A stretch of 64,000 nucleotides of DNA from Patescibacteria group bacterium (GTDB lineage: Bacteria > Patescibacteriota > Patescibacteriia > SG8-24 > DYFX01), in assembly GCA_030583805.1 (NCBI GenBank), contig CP129476.1:604129-668128 (forward strand), read 5' to 3'. The notes under the pieces were generated by a model. The model searched no databases. It had not been told where the DNA came from and saw only the letters and a program-made list of their open reading frames with translations. A program made the translations under genes and the position numbers. Below are positions 1-40,427 of the stretch, in pieces. How positions within the stretch are numbered: position 1 is the first letter of the stretch; each line of letters begins with the position of its first letter.

Positions 1-344
1 TCAAGCTTATGATAACCGCCGAACGGCGTAATGGCGCCGGGGTTCAGCTTCATCTTTTTCAAGGTCTTCTCGACCGCCATCTCCACTTTTTTGGCCTTGA
101 GCTGCTTTTTGATCTTCTGGAAGTTCGCGCGATACGAAGCCGGAATCACCAAAATAAAGTGCTTCCCCTTCTTGTCGACTTTCGGCAGCTCGACCTTCAC
201 GAGCAGCGTCTTGGCGATACCGTCGAGCTTCTCGCCGAGGGTCTGCGCCAGGTCGTAGGCGGTATAGACCTTCTTGTGCGGCACGATCTCGTACTTGATC
301 TCGGCCTTGTCGAGATATTTGAGGAGGGGTTTGGCTACAGCCAT
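1..344 (-). CDS. YbaK/ProX-like aminoacyl-tRNA deacylase; ATG at 344, C-terminal end runs off the window
   Basis: Reverse translation from 344 gives MAVAKPLLKYLDKAEIKYEIVPHKKVYTAYDLAQTLGEKLDGIAKTLLVKV...KKVEMA...GAITPFGG. It resembles the YbaK/ProX deacylase fold (compare E. coli YbaK: KTLLV, KKVEMA, GxSPxG). It is absent from the ORF track because it has no in-window stop. Confidence 0.6.
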   Translation of the reverse strand, partial: MAVAKPLLKYLDKAEIKYEIVPHKKVYTAYDLAQTLGEKLDGIAKTLLVKVELPKVDKKGKHFILVIPASYRANFQKIKKQLKAKKVEMAVEKTLKKMKLNPGAITPFGGYHKL

Positions 345-379
345 AGCAAGGGGTTACCTGTTGAAAACTCCCTTCAATA

Positions 380-6164: not shown

Positions 6165-6941
6165 TCAGATCGGCAGCGGAGTCAAAATTTCGTAGCCGTC
6201 GTCCGTGACGGCGACGGTGACCTCCCAATGCGCGGCCGGCTTCTTGTCGATCGTTTTGATCGTCCATTGGTCGCGGGCGAGGAGCACGTCCCAGCTGCCC
6301 ATCGTGACCATCGGCTCGACGGCCAAGACCATCCCTTTTTTGATCGTGACGGCCGGCATGTCCGGATCGTCATAATTCGGCACGTTCGGCTCTTCATGCA
6401 CGTGGCGACCGACGCCGTGCCCGACCAGCGCGCGCACGACGCCGAAACCGGCCCGCTCGACGACCGGCTGAACGGCTCTTCCGACCTCCCGGATTTTGAC
6501 GCCCGGACGGATGACGTCGATGCCGGCAAGCAAGGATTCTTTCGTAACACGCACGAGTTTCTGCCACGATTCCGGCACTTCGCCGATCGGCAGCGTGACC
6601 GCCATGTCGGTGCAGAGGCCTTTGTAGCGCAGTCCGATATCAAGAGAAAGAAGCATTCCCTCTTCCAATGCGCGGCCGGGATGCGGCGGCGCGTGAACGA
6701 CCTCGTCATTAATCGACGTGCAGACCGTGCCGTTGAACGGCACCGCGCCTCCGGCCTTGTAGCCCTTGAAGGACGGCTCGCCGCCGGCATCGCGCATGCG
6801 TTTTTCGGCGTGCGCGTCGAGCTCGGCCGTCGTGACGCCGGGTTTGGCCATCCGCGCGAGTTCACCCAAAATCTCCGAGAGGAGGCGACCCCCTTCCCGG
6901 AGCTTGGCGATATCTTCGTCTGTGTAGTGCTGGATGGCCAT
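6165..6941 (-). CDS. map: methionine aminopeptidase type I
   Basis: 258 aa. FNGTVCTSINDEVVHAPP, VGHGVGRHVHEEP and other metal-ligand motifs of MetAP-1. Confidence 0.9.
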   Translation of the reverse strand: MAIQHYTDEDIAKLREGGRLLSEILGELARMAKPGVTTAELDAHAEKRMRDAGGEPSFKGYKAGGAVPFNGTVCTSINDEVVHAPPHPGRALEEGMLLSLDIGLRYKGLCTDMAVTLPIGEVPESWQKLVRVTKESLLAGIDVIRPGVKIREVGRAVQPVVERAGFGVVRALVGHGVGRHVHEEPNVPNYDDPDMPAVTIKKGMVLAVEPMVTMGSWDVLLARDQWTIKTIDKKPAAHWEVTVAVTDDGYEILTPLPI

Positions 6942-6948
6942 TGGATCT

Positions 6949-7698
6949 TTAGGAATTCAGAATATACCCGGTAATCGTCAATACCGCAAAGGTCACAACG
7001 GCCAAGGCGAGGAAAATCAGCCCCCACAACTTGAGCCGCCGCGCCCGCGCTTTTCGGTGAAACAGATCCTCCAATTTCAACTCGGCTTCATGGGCGACCT
7101 CGGCGATGCCCTTGCGCGCGTCGACCAGGACGAGCTTCCCTCTCGCGGCGAACCATTCCTTGAGCGGTTCGGTGACTTCGTGATAGTGCCGGAGGCGTTC
7201 TTCGACGAGTTCCGGGGTGTCGTCGCCGCGCCGCACGAGCTCTCCGCCGCACTTGTCGCACGTGCCGTTCGGGCTGTGCGGAGGCTGCGTGATCAGGTTG
7301 TAGTTCGTCTTGCATTTCGAGCAGAGGCGGCGGTACGAAATGCGCTTTTTGGAATCCTCGTCCGGCACTTCCAGATAGAGCACGGCGTCAGGCTTGAAAA
7401 AGCTTTCGCACTTCTTCGCCTGCTCGACCGAACGGGGAAATCCGTCGAGAATCCACCCCTCCGGATGCTTGGAGACCCAGTCCTTCACGAGCGGCATGAT
7501 GATGTCGTCATCAACGAACGCGCCCTTGGCCATTTCGATTTTCGCCGTGTGGCCGCGTTTGGAATCTTCGTTCTGCAACTCACGAAGCAATTCGCCGACC
7601 GAAGCGGTCTGCACGCCCATGATGACGCTCAGGATGTGCGACTGCGTGCCTTTACCGGAGGCCTGCGTTCCGAGCACGGCGACTTTCATCCGCTTCAT
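6949..7698 (-). CDS. adk: adenylate kinase with Zn-LID and an unusual C-terminal hydrophobic tail
   Basis: Start chosen at MKRMKVAVLG (ATG 7698); the upstream part of the track ORF is R-rich and overlaps the neighbouring gene. P-loop GTQASGKGTQ, LID CSKCK...CDKCGG. Last 30 aa RRLKLWGLIFLALAVVTFAVLTITGYILNS look like a TM helix. Confidence 0.85.
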   Translation of the reverse strand: MKRMKVAVLGTQASGKGTQSHILSVIMGVQTASVGELLRELQNEDSKRGHTAKIEMAKGAFVDDDIIMPLVKDWVSKHPEGWILDGFPRSVEQAKKCESFFKPDAVLYLEVPDEDSKKRISYRRLCSKCKTNYNLITQPPHSPNGTCDKCGGELVRRGDDTPELVEERLRHYHEVTEPLKEWFAARGKLVLVDARKGIAEVAHEAELKLEDLFHRKARARRLKLWGLIFLALAVVTFAVLTITGYILNS

Positions 7699-8546
7699 GA
7701 TGGAAAAATGAAGAATGAGACGATGTAGGCAAGGGAAGCGCCGAGCGCGATGGGTGGCAGCGCCGGAATCGGCCTGCGTCGCGGTTGGGCGAGAAACAAC
7801 ATGAACATGAGGGCGAAACCGAGCGAGGCGCCAGCCAGCGTCGCGACCGCGTGCACGGGTCCAGTACGAAGCGCCGCGATGGCGAGCATGACGGGCAGCG
7901 CGACGTCGCCCGTGCCGAGCAGCATGCCGCGCTGTTCCGAAGAAGGCGCGGAGAGCAGCGCTCGCGGCGTAAGCGGCGTGAGCACGAACGCGAAAACGAC
8001 GCCGTGCGAAGAAAGGTCGCGGAACATTTTGACCATGTGCTTCGTGCGGTACACGGCCACAATATCGTAGAAGGAAAGCACGGTCAAAAGCGCGAGCATG
8101 GCGACGGGAGACATCTCGAGCGCCAGGCTCGCGGCGATGCCGGCGATGCCGACGACCAAGACCGCGTTCGCCGCGCCCGCGGCTTTCCACAAGAAGCGCA
8201 GCAGGATCACCGCTGATCCGAGCAGCAGGGCGATTCCCGGAGTGAAAAAGATGTCGGCCAGGAACCAGGTGCCAGCCAGGACCGAGAGCACGAAGAGCGC
8301 TTCAAAGACGATCGGGTTCTTGAAGGCGCGGAGCGCCAAGATGAGCATCGCCGTCGCAAACAAGATCAGCATGAGCACGTACGGCACCGACACCGCCGCC
8401 GAGGGTACATACCCGCCCCGCACGATCGTTTTCGCTCCGGCGGCCAGCGCCAGTCCGCCCGTCACGAAAAAGATGAGTAGCCCGTGGGCAAGAATGCTCC
8501 ACTGCTCCCCCTTCGGCAGCGCGGCGACGGGATGATGGTCGGACAT
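7695..8546 (-). CDS. polytopic membrane protein with presenilin/signal-peptide-peptidase-like YD and GxGD motifs
   Basis: Start chosen at MSDHH (ATG 8546). About 8 predicted TM helices. LSFYDIVAVY (YD) and LLGTGDVALP (GxGD), then PPIALGA (possible PAL-like), in the order seen in A22/presenilin-like intramembrane aspartyl proteases. Stop is adjacent to the adk start. Confidence 0.5.
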   Translation of the reverse strand: MSDHHPVAALPKGEQWSILAHGLLIFFVTGGLALAAGAKTIVRGGYVPSAAVSVPYVLMLILFATAMLILALRAFKNPIVFEALFVLSVLAGTWFLADIFFTPGIALLLGSAVILLRFLWKAAGAANAVLVVGIAGIAASLALEMSPVAMLALLTVLSFYDIVAVYRTKHMVKMFRDLSSHGVVFAFVLTPLTPRALLSAPSSEQRGMLLGTGDVALPVMLAIAALRTGPVHAVATLAGASLGFALMFMLFLAQPRRRPIPALPPIALGASLAYIVSFFIFPS

Positions 8547-8566
8547 ACGCAGGCAGTGTACCAAAA

Positions 8567-8586
8567 ACCCGGCTATTAGGCCGGGT
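8567..8586. terminator. palindromic hairpin CCCGGC-tattag-GCCGGG
   Basis: Perfect 6-bp GC stem between the 8596-8940 gene and the presenilin-like gene. Confidence 0.35.
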
Positions 8587-8595
8587 TCGAGAGGA

Positions 8596-8940
8596 CTACC
8601 GCTTCGTCGATGAGGTCTTGCGGAAGGCGTACACATAGGTCGTTGTACCATCGCCGCCGCCCGACCCGCCGTCGAAGCCTTGATCGAGGAGATAGGTCTC
8701 GGTATCGCGAGCGTGCTGATCGTGACCAGCGTCGTTAAAAATCCACGCACCGTTCTCGGCCACGCCATGATCTTCGAACAGGCGCTTGCGCGGATTGGCA
8801 GCAATCCCGACGTACCAGTTTCCGAGCTCGCAGTCCACGCCGTCGCAGCGAGTGGCGTACTGTTTGATAGCCTCGACTATTTTCCAGTCAGTCATATCGG
8901 TCATTGGGTTATGCGGATAAAAATCGGACAAGGGTTTCAA
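8596..8940 (-). CDS. hypothetical small protein with weak GIY-YIG-like motif
   Basis: 114 aa. NWYVGIAANPRKRLFEDHGV resembles the YIG...RR..H half of GIY-YIG/UPF0213 proteins. Gly-rich tail. Sits in the inserted block beside XRE/ImmA. Confidence 0.4.
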   Translation of the reverse strand: MKPLSDFYPHNPMTDMTDWKIVEAIKQYATRCDGVDCELGNWYVGIAANPRKRLFEDHGVAENGAWIFNDAGHDQHARDTETYLLDQGFDGGSGGGDGTTTYVYAFRKTSSTKR

Positions 8941-9115
8941 ATCGGGCCAGGACGGGGCATAATAATAAAGGGACGCCCCTCGACCTTGTCGTGGCCGGAT
9001 GTTCTACCTGCGTTAGCCTCCTCCAGCCGCAAAACTTGGGGAGGCTTTCGCTATTTTTGAGGCTATCACGACGGGTCACTCCGTACAACCTCAAAAAATT
9101 GAGGTTTATCCACAG

Positions 9116-9144
9116 TTGACGATACCGCCGGCGTAGAGTATCTT
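9116..9144 (+). promoter_or_regulatory. sigma70-like promoter TTGACG-N17-TATCTT, about 7 nt before the XRE ATG (near-leaderless)
   Basis: Hexamers and spacing read directly. No SD between the -10 and the ATG at 9151. Confidence 0.45.
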
Positions 9145-9150
9145 TTCCAC

Positions 9151-9465
9151 ATGGACGAAATGCGCGCGTTCTATCGGCCTCTCGGGGAAGCTCTTCGAAA
9201 TACTCGAATCGAGCTAAATTTAACGCTGGAGGAGACTTTGATTCGAAGCGAGCTTGGTCTAAACAAGTCTTCCCTGGTCAACATAGAAAAGGGACGGCAA
9301 CAGATTTCAATTTTTCAACTTTATAGACTATGTAAAGCCTTGCGGATCTCCCCTACTCATTTTCTTGAACAAGTATTCGAAACCCCTGTTAATCTCGATT
9401 TAGGTATTTTCCTGAGTGACGGATCGGAAAGAAAGAAAATGATTGAACTGATCAACAAGTATTAG
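9151..9465 (+). CDS. XRE-family helix-turn-helix transcriptional regulator
   Basis: 104 aa. LRNTRIELNLTLEETLIRSELGLNKSSLVNIEKGRQQISIFQLYRLCKAL is a Cro/C1-type HTH. Local GC is far lower than the flanks. Confidence 0.75.
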   Translation: MDEMRAFYRPLGEALRNTRIELNLTLEETLIRSELGLNKSSLVNIEKGRQQISIFQLYRLCKALRISPTHFLEQVFETPVNLDLGIFLSDGSERKKMIELINKY

Positions 9466-9466
9466 C

Positions 9467-9994
9467 ATGTTCTACAATCAGACAAATGAGCTGCGAAGCA
9501 GGGCTAGTAAATTAATTGAACTTTTGCCTTTGGAAAAAAGGATACCCGTTGCGGTTGAAGATCTTCCGGGTCTTTTGGGAATCAATGTAGATTATTCTGA
9601 TAGTCTTCCAGACGAAATATCGGGCTTCTTTAAAAGGAACGGAAAGGGAAATACTCCTGTAATTGTGATCAATAGCGCACACCCAAAGGAGCGCGGACGT
9701 TTTACGCTCGCTCATGAGATTGGACATTACCTACTGCACGCGCAAAAGGCAGTCACTATTAATACACTGCATTTCCGGAAAAGAGATAGCAGCCTTTCAC
9801 TTGATCTTGAAGAAATTGAGGCGAATCAATTTGCTGCAGAGCTATTGATGCCCTACCATTTGATGATTTCAGAAATTACCGGTAGCGATTTATTAAATCA
9901 TGATTCCGTGAATAAACTTACAACTAAACTTTCAAAGAAGTTTCTGGTAAGCGAACAGGCGATGACTTTCCGTATTGCCAAGCTTTTTTTCTAA
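9467..9994 (+). CDS. ImmA/IrrE-family zinc metallopeptidase (COG2856-like)
   Basis: 175 aa. HEIGHYLLH HExxH motif plus downstream E...AAELLMP, characteristic of ImmA/IrrE. Its ATG lies 2 nt after the XRE stop. Low GC. Confidence 0.8.
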   Translation: MFYNQTNELRSRASKLIELLPLEKRIPVAVEDLPGLLGINVDYSDSLPDEISGFFKRNGKGNTPVIVINSAHPKERGRFTLAHEIGHYLLHAQKAVTINTLHFRKRDSSLSLDLEEIEANQFAAELLMPYHLMISEITGSDLLNHDSVNKLTTKLSKKFLVSEQAMTFRIAKLFF

Positions 9995-32565: not shown

Positions 32566-33468
32566 TCACTTTGCAAGATGCAGGCGTCCGCCCGCGCAGG
32601 CGTAGCGGATCGTTCCTTCGCGATCGGTGCGATGGATGGAAATGCCGCGTTCAAGCAGCGCCGAGAGGACGCGCGGCGTGGGGTGGCCGTAGCGGTTGCC
32701 CGCGCCGGAAGAAATGACGGCCTCCTTGGGACGCACGGCATCGAGAAAGGCTTCCGACGTGGAGTAGGCTGAACCGTGATGCGCCACCTTGAGAAGTTCG
32801 GCACGCAGGGCGGACGCATCATCGAGCAGCGCGGCTTCGACGTGCGCGGAAATGTCGCCCGTGAAAAGCGCGCGCGACGCGCCGCACGAAAACGTCCCGA
32901 CGATTCCGAAATCGTTGGTACCGCCGCCTTTGGCGCTCGAAGTCGCCGGCGGCACGATCCTTCCCCGCATCTCTTCGCGCGGCCAGAGCACTTGGAACGA
33001 CGTTCCGTCGGCGAGGTCGGCGCGCTCCCCCGCCTGCACGAAACGCTGCGCGATTCCCTTCGCTTCGACCGCCGCGACGAACCGTCGCGCCGTATCGGTT
33101 GTTGGTGCCGCGCCGTTCCACCAAATTTCTCCTATCTTATATTTCTGCAGGACGCCGAAGAGTCCGACGTAATGATCGGCGTCGAGGTGCGTCACAAGCA
33201 CGACGTCGATCGTGCGGTCCCAAAAGGGCATGGCGTCGGACAAGCCTTCGAGCACGTCGGCGCCCGGCCCGCCGTCGATCAGAACATCTTTTCCTTCCCT
33301 GTCGCGAATGAGCACCGCGTCGCCTTGGCCGACATCGAAAAACCAGAGCTGCGCCGAAGCCGTCACGGCCAGGCGGCGCTGCTCGATGATGCCCGCGAGC
33401 GAGAAGGCTCCGGCGAGCGCCAGGACGATGAGAAGGATGTGGTGGCGTTTCAGAAACGTTTTATTCAT
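32566..33468 (-). CDS. comEC: ComEC/Rec2 C-terminal part: TM anchor plus metallo-beta-lactamase domain
   Basis: MNKTFLKRHHILLIVLAL TM, then VLVTHLDADHYVGL and ...VAHHGS MBL motifs. Its ATG overlaps the stop of the upstream ComEC membrane ORF (ATGAATAA, 8-nt overlap). Confidence 0.7.
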   Translation of the reverse strand: MNKTFLKRHHILLIVLALAGAFSLAGIIEQRRLAVTASAQLWFFDVGQGDAVLIRDREGKDVLIDGGPGADVLEGLSDAMPFWDRTIDVVLVTHLDADHYVGLFGVLQKYKIGEIWWNGAAPTTDTARRFVAAVEAKGIAQRFVQAGERADLADGTSFQVLWPREEMRGRIVPPATSSAKGGGTNDFGIVGTFSCGASRALFTGDISAHVEAALLDDASALRAELLKVAHHGSAYSTSEAFLDAVRPKEAVISSGAGNRYGHPTPRVLSALLERGISIHRTDREGTIRYACAGGRLHLAK

Positions 33469-34501
33469 AGACAGCATAGCGGAGCGAGGCGCGGCGGCGC
33501 CAACGCCATAAGAGAAATATCGAGGCGAACTCGACAAGCACCAAGAGCGCGAAGGCGGTCAGACCCGAAACCGAAGCGGCGCGCCACGTGGCCATCTCGC
33601 GAATCAGCGCGAGAGGCAGCATGAACAAACCGCGCGAGACGAGCGCGAGCGCGAAAGCGAACGGTATTGAAATGAAGCTGACGAATACAAGCAGCGCTCC
33701 GCCCGCCATGAGCGTCGGAATGAAGGCGGCGACGGCGACGTTGGCCGGAAGGCTGACGAGCGAGTACGCGCCCGACATCCAGGCGATGAGCGGCGCCGTG
33801 GCGATCGAGGCCGCGAGCGTTTGGCTGATCCACTCGACGGGCGCCCGCGGCCAAGCGCGTGGGAACGAAGCTTCAAATGCCGGCGCGATCGTCGCAAGGC
33901 CGAACGCCGCCATGAACGAGAGTTGGAATCCCCGATCGGCCACGAGACTCCTCGGCGAAAAAAGTCCGATCAGCGTCGCTGCGAGCAAAAGCGCGCGCAA
34001 CGGTTTCACCGGGCGTCCAAGGTAGCGTCCGGCCTCGACAGCACCGATCATGACAGCCGCGCGGACGACCGATCCTGGCGCCCCGGTCAGCAACACGAAA
34101 GCGACGATCGATCCGGCGGCCAGAAGCAATCGCGCGCCGCGTCGAAACGGCAGGCGCAGCAAAAATGTTTGCGTCGCCATGATCACGAGCCCGACGTTAT
34201 ATCCGGAAACCGCCGTGAGATGACTCGTCCCCGTGCGACGAAACGCGTCTTTCCATTTTTGAGAGAAGCCATCATCTGCGCCAAGCAGAAGCCCCGCCAC
34301 CCACGCCGACACGGGCGGATCGAACACGTCGTCGATTTGGCGGACGATCATACTGCGCCAACGATCAAAAATCCCGTTCGTCTTTTGCGGACGCGGAAGA
34401 AACGCGCCGTAGATACACAAGAGCGCGAGCAGCACGCCAACGCACGCCTCGAAGACGAGCGAACGCTTCGGAAGATCGTTCTTGAACCCTTGAAAACGCA
34501 T
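33461..34501 (-). CDS. comEC: ComEC/Rec2 N-terminal competence (membrane channel) domain
   Basis: 346 aa polytopic, ...FRRTGTSHLTAVSGYNVGLV... characteristic of the competence domain. Confidence 0.7.
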   Translation of the reverse strand: MRFQGFKNDLPKRSLVFEACVGVLLALLCIYGAFLPRPQKTNGIFDRWRSMIVRQIDDVFDPPVSAWVAGLLLGADDGFSQKWKDAFRRTGTSHLTAVSGYNVGLVIMATQTFLLRLPFRRGARLLLAAGSIVAFVLLTGAPGSVVRAAVMIGAVEAGRYLGRPVKPLRALLLAATLIGLFSPRSLVADRGFQLSFMAAFGLATIAPAFEASFPRAWPRAPVEWISQTLAASIATAPLIAWMSGAYSLVSLPANVAVAAFIPTLMAGGALLVFVSFISIPFAFALALVSRGLFMLPLALIREMATWRAASVSGLTAFALLVLVEFASIFLLWRWRRRASLRYAVYE

Positions 34502-34544
34502 AACGCCGTCGTCCTAACGGAGACGGCGTTCTTGTGTCAACGGG

Positions 34545-37367
34545 TTAAACGGCAACGATGTTGACGAGGCGTTTCTTCACCACAATCACCTGCTTCACCG
34601 TCTTCCCTTCAAGCGCGGCTTTCACTTTTTCATTCTCCATCGCGAGGCGCTCGAGCTCTTTGTCGTCGGCGTCGACCGGGACGGTAATGCGATCTTTCAC
34701 TTTACCGGTGACCTGGAGCGCGATTTCGACTTCGCTGTCGACGGTGAGCGCGGCGTCGTAGGCCGGCCACGGGGCGAGGGCGATGAGCTCTTTCTGGCCG
34801 GACGCTTCCCAGAGCTCCTCGGTGATGTGCGGCGCGAAGGGCGAGAGGATTTTCAGGAAGGCTTCGTAGTCCGCGTTCGAAAGCTGGGCGCCTTCGTTTT
34901 CGTTCACGAAAATCATCATCGTGCTGATGGCGGTGTTGAACTTGAAGGCTTCAATGTCTTCCGTGACTTTCTTGATCGTCTTGTGGAGCAGCGAGCGGAG
35001 CTTGGCCGGAGTTTCGGCGGCGCCGGACTGCATCTTCCAAACGCGCTCGAGGAAACGGCGCTGGCCGATGATGCCGGAGGTGCTCCACGGTTTCACCTGC
35101 TCGAAGTCGCCCATGAACATTTCATAGAGACGGAAAGCGTCGGCGCCGTGCTCGGCGATGACGTCGTCGGGGTTCACCACGTTGCCGCGCGACTTGGACA
35201 TTTTTTCGCCGTCCTCACCGAGGATAAGGCCCTGGTTCTTGAGACGCGTGAAGGGTTCTTTGAATTTCACGAAACCGGCGTCGAAGAGCACCTTCGTGAA
35301 GAAGCGCGCGTAGAGAAGGTGCAGCACGGCGTGCTCGGCGCCGCCGACGTAGGTGTCGACGGGGCACCAGTAATCGACTTTGGCTTTGTCGGCGAAAGCG
35401 CTTTCGTTCTTCGGATCGCAGTAGCGCAGGAAGTACCACGAAGAATCCACGAACGTATCCATCGTGTCGGATTCGCGCTTCGCGGGCTTGCCGCATTTCG
35501 GGCACGCCACGTCGTGGAATTTTTTCGAGCGGGCGAGCGGCGACTCCCCCGTCGGGCGGAAGTCGACGTCGTCGGGCAGCGTGACGGGGAGCTGTTCCTC
35601 GGGCACCGGCTGTTCGCCGTGCTCGTCGCAATAGACGATCGGAATCGGCGCGCCCCAATAGCGCTGGCGGGAAACGAGCCAGTCGCGAAGATGATAATTC
35701 ACCTGCTTGCGGCCTTTCTTTTCGGCTTCGAGCGCAGCGGTGATTTTTTTCCTGGCGTCCGCCGAAGCGAGACCGTCGAAGGCGCCGGAACCCGTCAGGA
35801 TGCCGTCGTCGGTGTAGGGACGGTCGAACGCGAACTTCTGGAGCACGTAGGCGTGCAGCGGGTCGGACACTTTCGTGGCGGCGTCTTCGAACGACAGCCA
35901 CTCGACCGTGAACTTTCCTTCTTCGTTCGCTTCAAGCGCCGTCGATGCACGGCGATCGCTCTTCAAGCGGAAGTGGAGGCCGATCGCGTCGATGGCGCGG
36001 GCGACGTTTTTGGAGTGCGCGAAATAGTTGTGGTGGATCGTTTCGGACATGCCGACGAGTTCGAGATCGGCATACCCCGTCTCTTCGAGAATCTCGCGGC
36101 GCGCGCAGGCTTCCGGATCTTCGTTTTCGTCGCGTCCGCCGCCCACGAGCAAATGTCCGCCCATCGAAGAGCCCCAGTTGATGGAGAGCACTTTTTTGCT
36201 CGAAGGATCTTCAACAAGCGCCACGATGCTGCGGCGGTATTCCGGATTTTCCTGCGGCGTGCCGGTGACCGGCTCGACGACCGTCGTGATGCGAAGGCCG
36301 TACGTTTTCGCAAAGGCGTGATCGCGCTCGTCGTGCGCGGGGACGACCATGACGGCGCCTGTGCCGTATTGCGGCAGGACGTAGTCGGCGACATAGACGG
36401 GAACGTCTTCGCCCGTGAACGGATGCTTTGCGTAGGCGCCGGTGAAGACGCCCGTCTTGGCTTGGTCGGTGCCGGTGCGCTCGATTTCCGATTTGCGCTT
36501 GGTCGCTTCGATGTAGGCCGCGACCGCGCCGCGTTCCGCTTCCGCGGTCAGACGCTCGACGATCGGGTGTTCCGGAGCGACGACGACGGCTGAAACGCCG
36601 AAGAGCGTGTCGGGGCGCGTCGTGAAAACGGTCAGGTCGAATTCTCCCCCGTCCGGCGTGTGGCCGCGGAAGTCGATCTCGGCGCCTTCGCTGCGCCCGA
36701 TCCAGTTGCGCTGCATCGCCTTGATCTTCTCCGGCCATTCGAGGCTGTCGAGATCTTCAAGCAAGCGGTCGGCGAAGTCGGTGATCTTGAAGAACCACTG
36801 CGAAAGATTTTTCTGGACGACCGGGTTCTTGCAGCGTTCGCACTTTCCGTCGACAACCTGCTCGTTGGCCAGCACGGTGTGATCGAATTCGCACCAATTG
36901 ACCGGCGCCTGTTTCTTGTAGGCCAAACCGTTCTTATAGAGGAGCAGGAACATCCACTGCGTCCACTTGTAATAGGAAGGCAGGCTCGTGTTGATTTCGC
37001 GTTCCCAGTCGTACGAAAAACCGATCAGCTTGAGCTGGCGGATGTAATTGGCGACGCTTTGCTGCGTGATGTCGTGCGGATGGCCGCCGATCTTGATGGC
37101 GTAGTTTTCGGCGGGCAGGCCGAAGGCGTCCCAGCCCATCGGATGCAGCACGCACTTGCCGTCCATGCGGCGCTTGCGCGAAAGGATGTCGGTCGCGATG
37201 TAGCCGATCGGGTGCCCCACATGGAGACCGTTCGAGGACGGATACGGGAACATGTCGAGGATGTAGCACTTCTCTTTGGAAGCGTCCTCCTTTGCCGCAA
37301 ACACGCGCTCAGCATCCCAGCGCGCTTGCCACTTCTTTTCGAGTTCCCGGGGTTCGTATTTCGGCAT
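34545..37367 (-). CDS. leuS: leucyl-tRNA synthetase carrying an inserted Nudix-box domain (about residues 368-519)
   Basis: 940 aa. HVGH and KMSKS (GEKMSKSRGN), CP1 editing domain (TRPDT...AVMVVPAHDERDHAFAKTYGL). Between editing-domain end and VNYHLRDWLVSRQRYWGAPIP lies about 150 aa containing GGGRDENEDPEACARREILEETGY, a match to the Nudix box G-x5-E-x7-REUxEExGU. Confidence 0.9.
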   Translation of the reverse strand: MPKYEPRELEKKWQARWDAERVFAAKEDASKEKCYILDMFPYPSSNGLHVGHPIGYIATDILSRKRRMDGKCVLHPMGWDAFGLPAENYAIKIGGHPHDITQQSVANYIRQLKLIGFSYDWEREINTSLPSYYKWTQWMFLLLYKNGLAYKKQAPVNWCEFDHTVLANEQVVDGKCERCKNPVVQKNLSQWFFKITDFADRLLEDLDSLEWPEKIKAMQRNWIGRSEGAEIDFRGHTPDGGEFDLTVFTTRPDTLFGVSAVVVAPEHPIVERLTAEAERGAVAAYIEATKRKSEIERTGTDQAKTGVFTGAYAKHPFTGEDVPVYVADYVLPQYGTGAVMVVPAHDERDHAFAKTYGLRITTVVEPVTGTPQENPEYRRSIVALVEDPSSKKVLSINWGSSMGGHLLVGGGRDENEDPEACARREILEETGYADLELVGMSETIHHNYFAHSKNVARAIDAIGLHFRLKSDRRASTALEANEEGKFTVEWLSFEDAATKVSDPLHAYVLQKFAFDRPYTDDGILTGSGAFDGLASADARKKITAALEAEKKGRKQVNYHLRDWLVSRQRYWGAPIPIVYCDEHGEQPVPEEQLPVTLPDDVDFRPTGESPLARSKKFHDVACPKCGKPAKRESDTMDTFVDSSWYFLRYCDPKNESAFADKAKVDYWCPVDTYVGGAEHAVLHLLYARFFTKVLFDAGFVKFKEPFTRLKNQGLILGEDGEKMSKSRGNVVNPDDVIAEHGADAFRLYEMFMGDFEQVKPWSTSGIIGQRRFLERVWKMQSGAAETPAKLRSLLHKTIKKVTEDIEAFKFNTAISTMMIFVNENEGAQLSNADYEAFLKILSPFAPHITEELWEASGQKELIALAPWPAYDAALTVDSEVEIALQVTGKVKDRITVPVDADDKELERLAMENEKVKAALEGKTVKQVIVVKKRLVNIVAV
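35811..36266 (-). other. Nudix-hydrolase-like domain embedded in leuS (box at 36072-36143)
   Basis: Segment RRSIVALVEDPSSKKVLSINWGSSMGGHLLVGGGRDENEDPEACARREILEETGYADLELVGM... replaces the about 55-aa linker found at this position in E. coli LeuRS. Confidence 0.6.
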
Positions 37368-39230: not shown

Positions 39231-40427
39231 AGTGTTCCGCGATGACGCATCGCTTCGGATATTTTTTGAATCGCGCTGATGAACGCCGCGGTGCGGAGCG
39301 TGCCGCCGTACTTCCCCCGCGACTTCAGCACGTCATCCCACGCGCGCAGCATTTTCTCTTTCAGCTTGTCGTTCACGGCTTCTTCCGTCCACTCCTCGCG
39401 CGTCAGGTTCTGCACCCATTCGAAGCACGAGACGGTGACGCCGCCGGCGTTCGCCAGCACGTCCGGCACGACGGTGACGCCGCGACGCTCCAGGACCTCG
39501 TCGGCCTCCGGCGTCGTCGGCCCGTTGGCGAGTTCGAGCACGAGCTTGGCTTGCACGCGCTCCGCGACGTCGGCGGTGATTTGGTTCTCGAGCGCGGCGG
39601 GCACGAGCACGTCCCAATCGCACGTCAGCAATTCCTCCTGCGTCAGCGTCTTCGGTAATTCCTTGAACCGCGCGAGATCGATGCCGTTCGGATCATAGAC
39701 ACCGCCTTTGGAATCGGAAACGGCCACGACGCTCCATCCGGCTTCGGCCGCGAGCTTCGCGAACCAGAAACCGACATTGCCGAACCCCTGAATCGCGATG
39801 CGGCGCTGCGACGATCCGAGTCCTGCTGCAGCAGCAGCGGCATCGAGCAGGAAAAAACCTCCGCGCCCCGTCGCGGCCTCGCGGCCGAGCGAACCGCCGA
39901 GCGAGAGCGGTTTTCCCGTCACGACGCCGGGGGGCGGAACGACCGATCGTCTTTTCATATTCGTCGAGAAACCAAGCCATCTCGCGGCCGGACGTGTTCA
40001 TGTCCGGCGCGGGAATATCGAGATCGGGACCGACATGCGGCGCGAGCGCGCGGGCGAAAGCGCGGGTCAGGCGCTCGAGCTCCGCCGCCGAGAGCGCTTT
40101 CGGATCGACGACGATCCCGCCCTTGCCGCCGCCGAGCGGGACGCCGACCACAGCCGTTTTGACCGTCATCCAAAACGAAAGCGCTTTGACTTCATCAAGA
40201 TCGACGGCGGGCGCGTAACGGATGCCGCCCTTATACGGGCCGCGCGCGCGGTTCCATTGCACGCGATAGGCGGGAAACGTTTTCTTCTCGCCGGAATCCA
40301 TTTGCACCTCGAGTTCGAAATGCAAAACACGGTCGGGCGTTTTTAGTTTTTCAAGCACGGCCGCGTCGAGCCCCATCTTCGCGGCAGCCGTGTCGAGCTG
40401 CGCCATGGCATTCTGAAAGGCATTCAT
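39227..40427 (-). pseudogene. gdh: glutamate dehydrogenase (Glu/Leu/Phe/Val dehydrogenase family) interrupted by a +1 frameshift in a G6/C6 homopolymer
   Basis: N-terminal ORF has GGGKGG and ends ...[11 protein letters not shown], then runs into R-rich nonsense. Second ORF frame gives [24 protein letters not shown]...GFGNVG. The frames switch inside CCCCCC (plus-strand GGGGGG at 39928-39933). One fewer G would restore a continuous about 399-aa GDH. Confidence 0.7.

Follow-up and report, generated by a model that had tools for sequence, protein, structure and literature searches.

In the bifunctional NadM-Nudix proteins, one domain follows the other along the chain. The pair consists of an NMN adenylyltransferase and a Nudix part that is a characterized ADP-ribose pyrophosphatase (PDB 2QJO), whereas the Nudix domain in the window (the whole 64-kb stretch of DNA that was analyzed) is an internal insertion in a leucyl-tRNA synthetase (LeuRS). 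An isoleucyl-tRNA synthetase (IleRS) with an N-acetyltransferase domain, covered by the curated "exception" model NF040702, likewise unites a class Ia synthetase with a small-molecule enzyme domain, but the additional domain of the window LeuRS belongs to the Nudix family and lies inside the CP1 editing domain, and related LeuRS proteins hold two or three copies at three sites. Trans-editing factors (AlaX, YbaK/ProX, ThrRS-ed, and DTD) are free-standing synthetase editing domains, as are stand-alone CP1+Nudix proteins related to the insert, but the latter include a Nudix domain, and in several of them CP1 is reduced and its T-rich motif altered; a 2024 review of editing (PMC11295145) yielded no natural free-standing homolog of CP1. 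Free-standing Nudix proteins (Enterococcus faecalis Q836H1 [PDB 2AZW], NUDT2, RppH, and NudB) are 15 to 24% identical to the insert, which differs from them in being embedded in a synthetase, in its family-specific motifs INWG and HHxY[FY]AxSKN, and in its EPVTGxPQ linker. Few enzymes have been studied as much as aminoacyl-tRNA synthetases, but we found no description of a Nudix domain spliced into a synthetase editing domain in full-text literature searches, a comprehensive review of the Nudix clan, or the same 2024 editing review, and searches on LeuRS-Nudix combinations and on synthetases of the Candidate Phyla Radiation (CPR) yielded nothing relevant.

The leuS reading frame of the window is uninterrupted and encodes 940 residues followed by a stop codon (Table 1). 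The product scored 1051.4 bits against the equivalog HMM TIGR00396 (leuS_bact; cutoff, 548.4), with the match split by the insert into two stretches, and phmmer gave 780 bits to Thermus thermophilus LeuRS (1H3N) and 687 bits to Escherichia coli LeuRS. NCBI lists an identical protein, on a 1.17-Mb contig, under the name [quoted passage not shown] Overall, the enzyme is the same as canonical bacterial LeuRS (T. thermophilus 1H3N and 2BYT; E. coli 4AQ7 and 4ARC), with which it shares the HIGH and KMSKS signatures, the CP1 T-rich motif, the editing Asp, and the anticodon-binding and C-terminal domains. It differs by the addition of roughly 140 residues, which form the Nudix domain, and by the absence of the leucine-specific domain of about 56 residues (T. 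thermophilus 581 to 636) before KMSKS, where window residues 718 to 722 span T. thermophilus 580 to 637 in the 1H3N alignment. Because the leucine-specific domain is variable among bacteria and is not a universal defining feature, its absence leaves membership in TIGR00396 standing. Among 78 fused and unfused LeuRS proteins, H49, G51, H52, K722, and K725 of the synthetic site and T249, T250, R251, D253, T254, H345, D346, R348, and D349 of CP1 were invariant, and M723 and S724 were at least 90% conserved. The synthetase core is not remodeled. We conclude that the window LeuRS is best explained as fully functional, with its aminoacylation and CP1 editing motifs intact.

Table 1. Features of the leuS gene and its inserted domain, in window coordinates
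Feature	Position	Strand	Residues	Basis or remark
leuS CDS, bacterial-type LeuRS with insert	34545..37367	(-)		ORF; TIGR00396; 1H3N match
HIGH signature HVGH, synthetic active site	37212..37223	(-)	49-52
CP1 editing domain, first part	36252..36710	(-)	220-372	PF13603 profile 1-148 of 185
T-rich motif TTRPDT within CP1	36606-36623	(-)	249-254
CP1 motif GTGAVMVVPAHDERD	36321-36365	(-)	335-349	Contains AHDERD; D349 is the conserved Asp of HDxxD
Inserted Nudix module, relative to T. thermophilus LeuRS	35829..36248	(-)	374-513	PDB and ortholog alignments
Pfam NUDIX PF00293 match	35838..36239	(-)	377-510	48.6 bits; gathering 21.1
Nudix box GGRDENEDPEACARREILEETGY	36072..36140	(-)	410-432	Exact fit to Gx5Ex7REUxEExGU
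X-loop specificity motif HHNYFAHSK	36009..36035	(-)	445-453	Y448 is 16 aa past the Nudix box
CP1 editing domain, last part, after insert	35721..35828	(-)	514-549	PF13603 profile 152-184
KMSKS signature, synthetic active site	35190..35204	(-)	722-726

An earlier note on this DNA had proposed a LeuRS with an embedded Nudix domain on the strength of a motif fitting the Nudix consensus, and both the architecture (1051 bits to TIGR00396 together with a full match to PF00293) and the exact fit of GGRDENEDPEACARREILEETGY hold. The profile search, ortholog alignment, and structure prediction that the note had suggested agree: the PF00293 match on LeuRS covers profile positions 2 to 132 of 134, the insert scanned alone gave 52.1 bits (E value, 8.7e-14; cutoff, 21.1), and its AlphaFold model (pLDDT, 94.5) has the α/β/α sandwich of the Nudix fold. 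Alignment to 1H3N paired window residues 1 to 373 with T. thermophilus 1 to 370 and residues 514 to 718 with 373 to 580, such that about 140 residues are inserted between T. thermophilus residues 370 and 373. The note had described an extended segment (35811 to 36266, corresponding to residues 368 to 519) in the linker after CP1. The excess length is real, as the region measures 176 residues here versus 34 to 66 (mostly 35 to 40) in unfused orthologs, one of which (P0009) has the loop PPAGSK at the corresponding site, but the placement needs correction, as the insert occupies a surface loop within CP1 and about 35 CP1 residues come after it. A conserved N-terminal linker, EPVTGxPQxxPExR, begins at residue 365. 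The box supplies the catalytic and metal-binding residues E416, R424, E425, E428, and E429 and is the sole match to a Nudix box or Nudix profile in six frames of the entire window. In the X-loop, the insert alignment shows A450 and K453 as invariant and conservation of at least 90% for H445, H446, and Y448. We conclude that the insert is a self-contained Nudix domain, a modular plug-in in a surface loop of CP1.

At least 80 Patescibacteria species in GTDB, among them Saccharibacteria, Parcubacteria, Moranbacteria, and others, have the insert at the same site and with the same length. The Nudix box was intact in 50 of 50 insert-bearing close homologs, with overall identities as low as about 51%, and its E, R-E, E-E, and T-G positions were invariant across 37 inserts. 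Moreover, the dN/dS ratio of the insert was 0.09 to 0.14, near the value of the synthetase core, and thus the insert is under strong purifying selection. The insert has also been lost repeatedly among close relatives and is therefore dispensable for LeuRS function; no core residues were found to covary with insert presence, as might signal an interface or coupling.

Association of the domain with LeuRS and other synthetases is recurrent. Of the 150 best family representatives, nearly all lie within or next to LeuRS, and free-standing family members adjoin leuS or argS. Stand-alone CP1+Nudix proteins (P0001, P0135, P0138, and others) occur in a DPANN archaeon, with P0001 found in Aenigmatarchaeota CP066684.1, and also beside leuS in CPR, as in the case of P0138. 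A sister insert subtype has a degenerate Nudix box in which Glu is changed to Gln and the Arg is lost, and therefore catalysis is not universally retained; second copies in tandem Nudix pairs are also degenerate. The three sites, the presence of up to three copies, and the stand-alone CP1+Nudix proteins show that the architecture arose or moved repeatedly. The inserts of other CPR LeuRS proteins are Ham1/ITPase (197 bits), HAD phosphatase, or α/β-hydrolase domains, and a CPR IleRS contains a histidine phosphatase (His_Phos_1), such that the Nudix fusion is part of a broader pattern of phosphohydrolase domains inside CPR class Ia synthetases.

Complementarity by gene fission or fusion was ruled out, as the 172-residue Nudix protein encoded directly after leuS in an unfused relative (P0013) and the 263/264-residue Nudix proteins in L087 and L089 belong to another subfamily (15 to 34 bits); moreover, a fused relative (P0008) also has a separate Nudix gene and two unfused relatives have none. 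The Nudix protein of the Saccharibacteria nusB-nudix-rnc operon was likewise rejected as a paralog of the insert (22 to 43 bits, mostly over the box).

The inserted domain is predicted to be catalytically active because of its box conservation and an omega of about 0.1. We favor, at a probability of roughly 40%, an overall reading in which LeuRS carries a plugged-in, active Nudix domain that cleaves ApnA-type nucleotides at the synthetase. The domain would hydrolyze a pyrophosphate-containing adenine or purine nucleotide derivative and would have no part in leucine activation or tRNA deacylation. The preferred substrate class may be dinucleoside polyphosphates of the Ap3A/Ap4A type, which arise as side products when aminoacyl-adenylate reacts with ATP, and tethering to LeuRS would then make their clearance constitutive and stoichiometric in a minimal-genome organism. 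A mark of ApnA hydrolases is a conserved X-loop Tyr about 17 residues past the Nudix box (Dunn 1999, summarized in PMC5389931). Consistent with this mark, Y448 lies at +16, and hmmalign aligned Y82, A84, and K87 of NUDT2 column for column with Y448, A450, and K453. The conserved Tyr thus appears to favor dinucleoside polyphosphates as the substrate, with general nucleotide house-cleaning as the main rival.

Several observations weigh against ApnA clearance. Similarity to characterized Ap4A hydrolases is weak, as NUDT2 scored 16 bits against the insert profile (85% by hhalign, over the box only) and RppH models gave 16.7 bits to the whole protein, 19.3 bits to the insert alone, and 25 to 31 bits to free-standing members, for which they were still the best NCBIfam match (cutoffs, at least 116). 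Because neither NUDT2 nor the RppH models show significant whole-domain similarity, we do not file the insert in the ApnA-hydrolase subfamily (NUDT2 or RppH-NudH type) and regard it only as a possible functional analogue. No NCBIfam Nudix subfamily model reached its cutoff: the best match of the window protein was NudB (NF006961, 28.8 bits versus 103), and the MutT models NF008044 and MutT1 gave 12.8 bits versus 148 and 13.3 bits versus 475, respectively. Assignment of a substrate by curated subfamily models or PDB sequence profiles was abandoned, as none was above cutoff (best PDB E value, about 3e-5), as was assignment by nearest fold, as the best structural neighbor, 2AZW, is uncharacterized and itself labeled "Undetermined." The repeated loss of a dispensable insert, the degenerate box of the sister subtype, and the MutT-like gene neighborhood of one free-standing family member beside fpg/nei also count against ApnA clearance. 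Nor is LeuRS generally counted among the major producers of Ap4A, which is a further point against it.

One alternative is that the domain cleans the nucleotide pool as a MutT- or NTP pyrophosphatase-like enzyme acting on oxidized or noncanonical (d)NTPs. LeuRS would then be no more than a permissive carrier that a minimal genome expresses constitutively, and the domain would have no mechanistic link to aminoacylation. We consider this reading somewhat unlikely, although the unrelated hydrolases inserted in CPR LeuRS and IleRS hint at such a generic carrier and thereby also weaken the case for ApnA clearance. Moreover, the gene of one free-standing family member (P0153) follows that of an Fpg/Nei glycosylase at a distance of 5 nt, as in the classic MutM/MutT pair, another member has a dUTPase gene nearby, JGI annotates the free-standing relatives as MutT, and insert loss occurred without changes in the LeuRS core. 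Against house-cleaning, the family is concentrated in or beside LeuRS rather than spread over carrier proteins, insertion recurred at three LeuRS sites, and the stand-alone versions retain the CP1 scaffold. The MutT models also fall far below cutoff, and the X-loop motif is similar to the one in ApnA hydrolases.

Another alternative is that the domain acts on tRNA held by CP1, where it might strip a 5′-triphosphate, an NAD or Np4 cap (RppH/NudC-like), or an acceptor-end pyrophosphate or nucleotide adduct, making CP1+Nudix a module for tRNA-end repair or maturation. The insert does lie within the domain to which the CCA end of tRNA binds, the stand-alone CP1+Nudix proteins are consistent with such a module, and the structural neighbors include RppH and decapping Nudix enzymes, with RppH also the best, if sub-threshold, NCBIfam match of free-standing members. 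The domain is acidic, however (median net charge, -8; pI, 5.25), core residues are not remodeled toward a new RNA path, RppH models reach only 19 to 31 bits, and Saccharibacteria already encode a separate Nudix protein in the nusB-nudix-rnc RNA-processing operon, and we therefore judge action on tRNA ends improbable. A more specific version, to which we give still less credence, is surveillance of the tRNA acceptor end: CP1 would dock the CCA end or adjacent 5′ end of tRNA-Leu and the Nudix domain would strip a pyrophosphate-linked adduct, restoring chargeable tRNA. Adducts would include a toxin-installed 3′-pyrophosphate and an NAD/Np4-type or triphosphate 5′ cap, and the stand-alone CP1+Nudix proteins, of which one has been transferred to a DPANN archaeon, would do the same work in trans.

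Alternatively, the domain could be noncatalytic here and either serve as a nucleotide-binding sensor or modulate LeuRS in a structural or interaction role. Noncatalytic Nudix domains typically belong to multidomain proteins (PMC5389931), which is the setting here, and the degenerate boxes of the sister subtype and of second tandem copies point the same way. As all catalytic residues are invariant in the 50 homologs at an omega of about 0.1, and as binding-only domains usually lack the REUxEE glutamates, we regard a noncatalytic role as a long shot. Finally, although one apparent homopolymer frameshift elsewhere in the window (in a GDH gene) indicates that the assembly is not error-free, there is virtually no chance that an assembly chimera, a mobile or intein-like element, or a decaying remnant accounts for the insert, given the continuous frame, uniform GC (0.60 to 0.63) over the junctions without a composition shift, no notable flanking direct or inverted repeats, strong purifying selection, and recurrence in assemblies from independent projects, which also settles the concern about misassembly raised in the earlier note.

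The LeuRS-Nudix architecture extends well beyond one genome, and purifying selection maintains it in much of the CPR. The insert is relevant to annotation, as the sole name that NCBI at present gives such proteins is "class I tRNA ligase family protein," and to LeuRS-targeted inhibitors that bind CP1. If the domain acts in tRNA-end surveillance, it would add to deacylation a new class of tRNA quality control that is linked to synthetases. If it is a house-cleaning passenger, it would show minimal genomes packing maintenance enzymes into essential proteins. If it clears ApnA, it would provide a natural, testable system for the long-debated physiological link between side reactions of synthetases and Ap4A signaling.

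The Nudix domain that the earlier note had reported within a LeuRS was borne out by profile searches. The 940-aa product matched TIGR00396 at 1051 bits (cutoff, 548), the match being split in two stretches, and the NUDIX match within it likewise exceeded its cutoff. Searched by itself, the insert matched Pfam NUDIX at 52.1 bits (E = 8.7e-14), and the motif quoted in the note fits the Nudix consensus exactly. No second Nudix box or Nudix profile match was found in a six-frame translation of the whole 64 kb.

Coordinates of leuS and of the domains and motifs of its product
Feature	Protein position (aa)	Window position	Strand	Detail
leuS ORF	940 aa	34545-37367	minus	Bacterial leucyl-tRNA synthetase
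LeuRS editing domain PF13603, first part	220-372			Pfam profile positions 1-148 of 185
NUDIX domain PF00293	377-510			48.6 bits vs gathering 21.1; profile 2-132 of 134
Nudix box GGRDENEDPEACARREILEETGY	410-432	36072-36140		Exact fit to Gx5Ex7REUxEExGU
HIGH signature HVGH	49-52
KMSKS signature	722-726
Editing T-rich motif TTRPDT	249-254
AHDERD	D349			In CP1 editing domain

The insert had been placed in the linker after CP1, at coordinates that correspond to aa 368-519 of the LeuRS. Alignment to T. thermophilus LeuRS (PDB 1H3N; 780 bits) paired window aa 1-373 with residues 1-370 and aa 514-718 with residues 373-580, and therefore indicated an insertion of ~140 residues between T. thermophilus residues 370 and 373. 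The Pfam PF13603 profile resumed (positions 152-184) C-terminal of the insert, where ~35 CP1 residues follow, and orthologs aligned with V-[IV]-E-P before the insert and x-Y-T-x-x-G-[IV]-L after it. Thus, the enlargement was real (176 residues vs 34-66, mostly 35-40, in unfused orthologs), but the insert occupies a loop within CP1. Separately, the leucine-specific domain, which spans ~56 aa before KMSKS in T. thermophilus (581-636) and E. coli LeuRS, is missing from the window protein (aa 718-722, window 35190-35215) and, judged from length, from unfused relatives of ~800 aa.

The GC content was flat over the insert junctions (0.60 to 0.63), a search of the insert flanks gave no meaningful repeats on either side, and an identical protein is listed at NCBI on a 1.17-Mb contig ([quoted passage not shown]). 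Ortholog alignment, proposed in the earlier note for boundaries and spread, found the same insert at nearly constant length in 50 of the best 120 LeuRS relatives (window included), with source assemblies from NCBI, JGI, ENA, and Logan. Two peptide patterns specific to the family, scanned against the genomes of GTDB species, yielded at least 80 loci covering Saccharibacteria (including complete chromosome CP025011.1), Parcubacteria/Paceibacterota, Moranbacteria, Uhrbacteria, and Adlerbacteria, as well as two MAGs labeled DPANN archaea; 63 of 80 encoded the N-terminal core, CP1a, Nudix, CP1b, and C-terminal core with one full box each. Moreover, when 1.84 billion cluster representatives were searched exhaustively with the profile, 342 matched at E ≤1e-10, 31 of them at ≤1e-30, and the best 150 of the 342 were mostly LeuRS or LeuRS fragments. 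We conclude that the LeuRS-Nudix architecture is not an artifact and is widespread. Among the records, MAGs at L005-L008, L021, L027, L059, L061, and L078 carry a CPR-type LeuRS-Nudix locus under ENA/TPA labels of "uncultured Gammaproteobacteria," "Bdellovibrionales," or "Bacilli," which are probably taxonomic mislabels, and L052, labeled "Nanoarchaeia," encodes a full bacterial-type LeuRS-Nudix.

The full Nudix box was kept in 50/50 fused homologs. In an alignment of 37 inserts, E416, R424, E425, E428, E429, T430, G431, W398, A450, K453, E482, and W490 were invariant, and H445, H446, and Y448 were at least 90% conserved. The insert diverged about as much as the core (mean identity, 53% vs 55%), and dN/dS against the three closest relatives was 0.09, 0.11, and 0.14 for the insert and 0.05, 0.09, and 0.12 for the core. 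These patterns mark the insert as a functional domain that is being maintained. The synthetase itself is intact, as HIGH, KMSKS, TTRPDT, and AHDERD were invariant or nearly so in 78 fused and unfused LeuRS. No core column was conserved in fused yet different in unfused LeuRS, and sister lineages differed only at variable positions directly after the insert; therefore, the domain acts as a plug-in, with neither LeuRS active site remodeled. The data show that a complete Nudix domain under selection lies in a loop of CP1 and that the LeuRS is canonical in other respects.

Full-text searches covering LeuRS/aaRS-Nudix, aaRS of CPR, Patescibacteria, or Saccharibacteria, and free-standing CP1 turned up no description of the LeuRS-Nudix architecture, and tRNA synthetases are absent from a review of the Nudix clan (PMC5389931). 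The architecture is visible in public databases as precomputed Pfam hits but, as far as found, is neither described nor characterized.

Nudix inserts appear to have been lost and moved repeatedly. A core-only neighbor-joining tree contained at least five fused/unfused sister pairs, such as the window clade beside P0009 (91% identical), and Fitch parsimony counted nine changes of insert state, the direction of which is insecure at the root because deep sampling is biased to fused LeuRS; the tree is also rough. Among near relatives of the window LeuRS, insert identity follows core identity. Vertical inheritance with repeated precise loss is the favored reading near the window, and such loss would therefore make the domain dispensable for LeuRS function. 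In more distant LeuRS, Nudix occupies three sites, of which A separates the N-terminal core from CP1, B is the site used in the window LeuRS, and C is within the C-terminal catalytic half. Two or three copies occur in single LeuRS (P0124, P0128, P0142, and P0154; two to three NUDIX stretches by Pfam), and further multicopy or multisite LeuRS include P0123, P0131, P0136, P0210, and P0244. The best matches of site-A copies were site-B copies of other LeuRS (55 to 65% identity), and those of free-standing 160- to 200-aa proteins were LeuRS-embedded copies (44 to 61%), a pattern that points to repeated movement between free and embedded forms. A second subtype, "LKWK...TGGIExGQT...EETGY," in which the first Glu is Gln and the Arg is often missing, was found at site B of some LeuRS and in tandem pairs, where it forms the degenerate second copy after a first copy with an intact box.

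Proteins of 276 to 354 aa consist of CP1 with Nudix in the same loop and nothing else; the stand-alone and free-standing classes may include truncated gene calls, and several members were confirmed in long contigs. P0001 (L001 8001-8864, CP066684.1), recovered in three assemblies, lies near fibrillarin in a complete Aenigmatarchaeota genome, and its presence in a DPANN archaeon is a probable transfer from CPR. A normal unfused leuS (806 aa) follows P0138 (L084 6001-6831, CANQOR010000004.1) at a distance of 17 nt. In several such proteins, CP1 is reduced and its T-rich motif altered, but the second Asp of HDxxD is kept. No natural free-standing CP1 was found in a 2024 review of aaRS editing (PMC11295145). 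Free-standing family members have mixed gene contexts: P0177 precedes a Nudix-bearing leuS by 2 nt, P0272 follows argS by 13 nt with IleRS nearby, and P0153 follows an Fpg/Nei glycosylase gene by 5 nt. One nonsynthetase, P0248 (1318 aa), combines GNAT, two Nudix-like stretches of the LeuRS-insert family, GNAT, and an M17 leucyl aminopeptidase catalytic domain.

Other Nudix genes occur around leuS. Between leuS and comEC, several syntenic relatives, fused and unfused, encode a separate Nudix protein of 172 or 263/264 aa, which is from another subfamily and sometimes has a degenerate box (L085 10517-11035, L087 7863-8654, and L089 8708-9502); the window interval is 43 nt (34502-34544) and lacks it. 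In many Saccharibacteria, a conserved nusB, Nudix (~168 aa), rnc (RNase III) cluster lies ~1 kb downstream of Nudix-bearing leuS (L031 6712-8346; also L017, L033, L044, L058, L063, and others); this Nudix likewise falls in a different subfamily, as it scored 22 to 43 bits with the insert profile, and is an RppH-like candidate. Within the window, ComEC is encoded by two minus-strand ORFs overlapping by 77 nt (Competence, 346 aa, at 33461-34501 and Lactamase_B, 323 aa, at 32566-33537), a split that is probably genuine for this clade because it recurs in relatives L086 and L088. The glutamate dehydrogenase ortholog (39236-40427, minus strand) is split into two frames (aa 1-172 and 166-397) that meet near 39912-39931, just downstream of a C6 homopolymer (ccgcccccc), and reflects either a homopolymer indel assembly error or a pseudogene.

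We infer that the insert is an active pyrophosphohydrolase because its catalytic residues are invariant and omega is ~0.1. The X-loop is the one specific clue to a putative substrate. Nudix specificity motifs lie ~17 aa past the box, where a conserved Tyr is tied to ApnA hydrolases (PMC5389931). In the insert, Y448 stands at +16 in HHN-Y-F-A-HS-K, and human NUDT2 (sequence checked against 3U53) contains ELN-Y-V-A-RN-K, in which Y, A, and K are spaced alike; hmmalign placed both motifs in the same columns, with an overall score of only 16 bits. We tentatively favor, at a probability of about 0.4, that the LeuRS-tethered Nudix would clear dinucleoside polyphosphates or a related adenine nucleotide. 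Hydrolysis of aminoacyl-adenylate, also suggested by the earlier note, found no support and would be an atypical reaction for a Nudix enzyme because aminoacyl-adenylate is an acyl-phosphate, not a pyrophosphate.

The main rival, somewhat unlikely, is general house-cleaning of the nucleotide pool with LeuRS as the carrier. In its favor are the fpg neighbor of a free-standing family member and the Ham1 and HAD inserts that other CPR LeuRS carry besides Nudix: Ham1/ITPase in P0179 (aa 984-1167, 197 bits) and HAD phosphatase in P0169 (aa 640-795). A role directed at tRNA ends is improbable, as the acidity of the domain (median net charge, -8) argues against direct RNA binding, and a noncatalytic role is more improbable still.

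Synthetases with an added catalytic domain are a known kind, to which LeuRS-Nudix belongs as a variant. P0184 LeuRS carries an α/β serine hydrolase (aa 238-400) besides Nudix, and the L090 IleRS (6386-9889; TIGR00392, 868 bits), flanked by Nudix genes with argS upstream, has a histidine-phosphatase (cobC/PGM-like) domain inside. It thus seems that class Ia synthetases of CPR often harbor (phospho)hydrolase domains of the kind that acts on small molecules.
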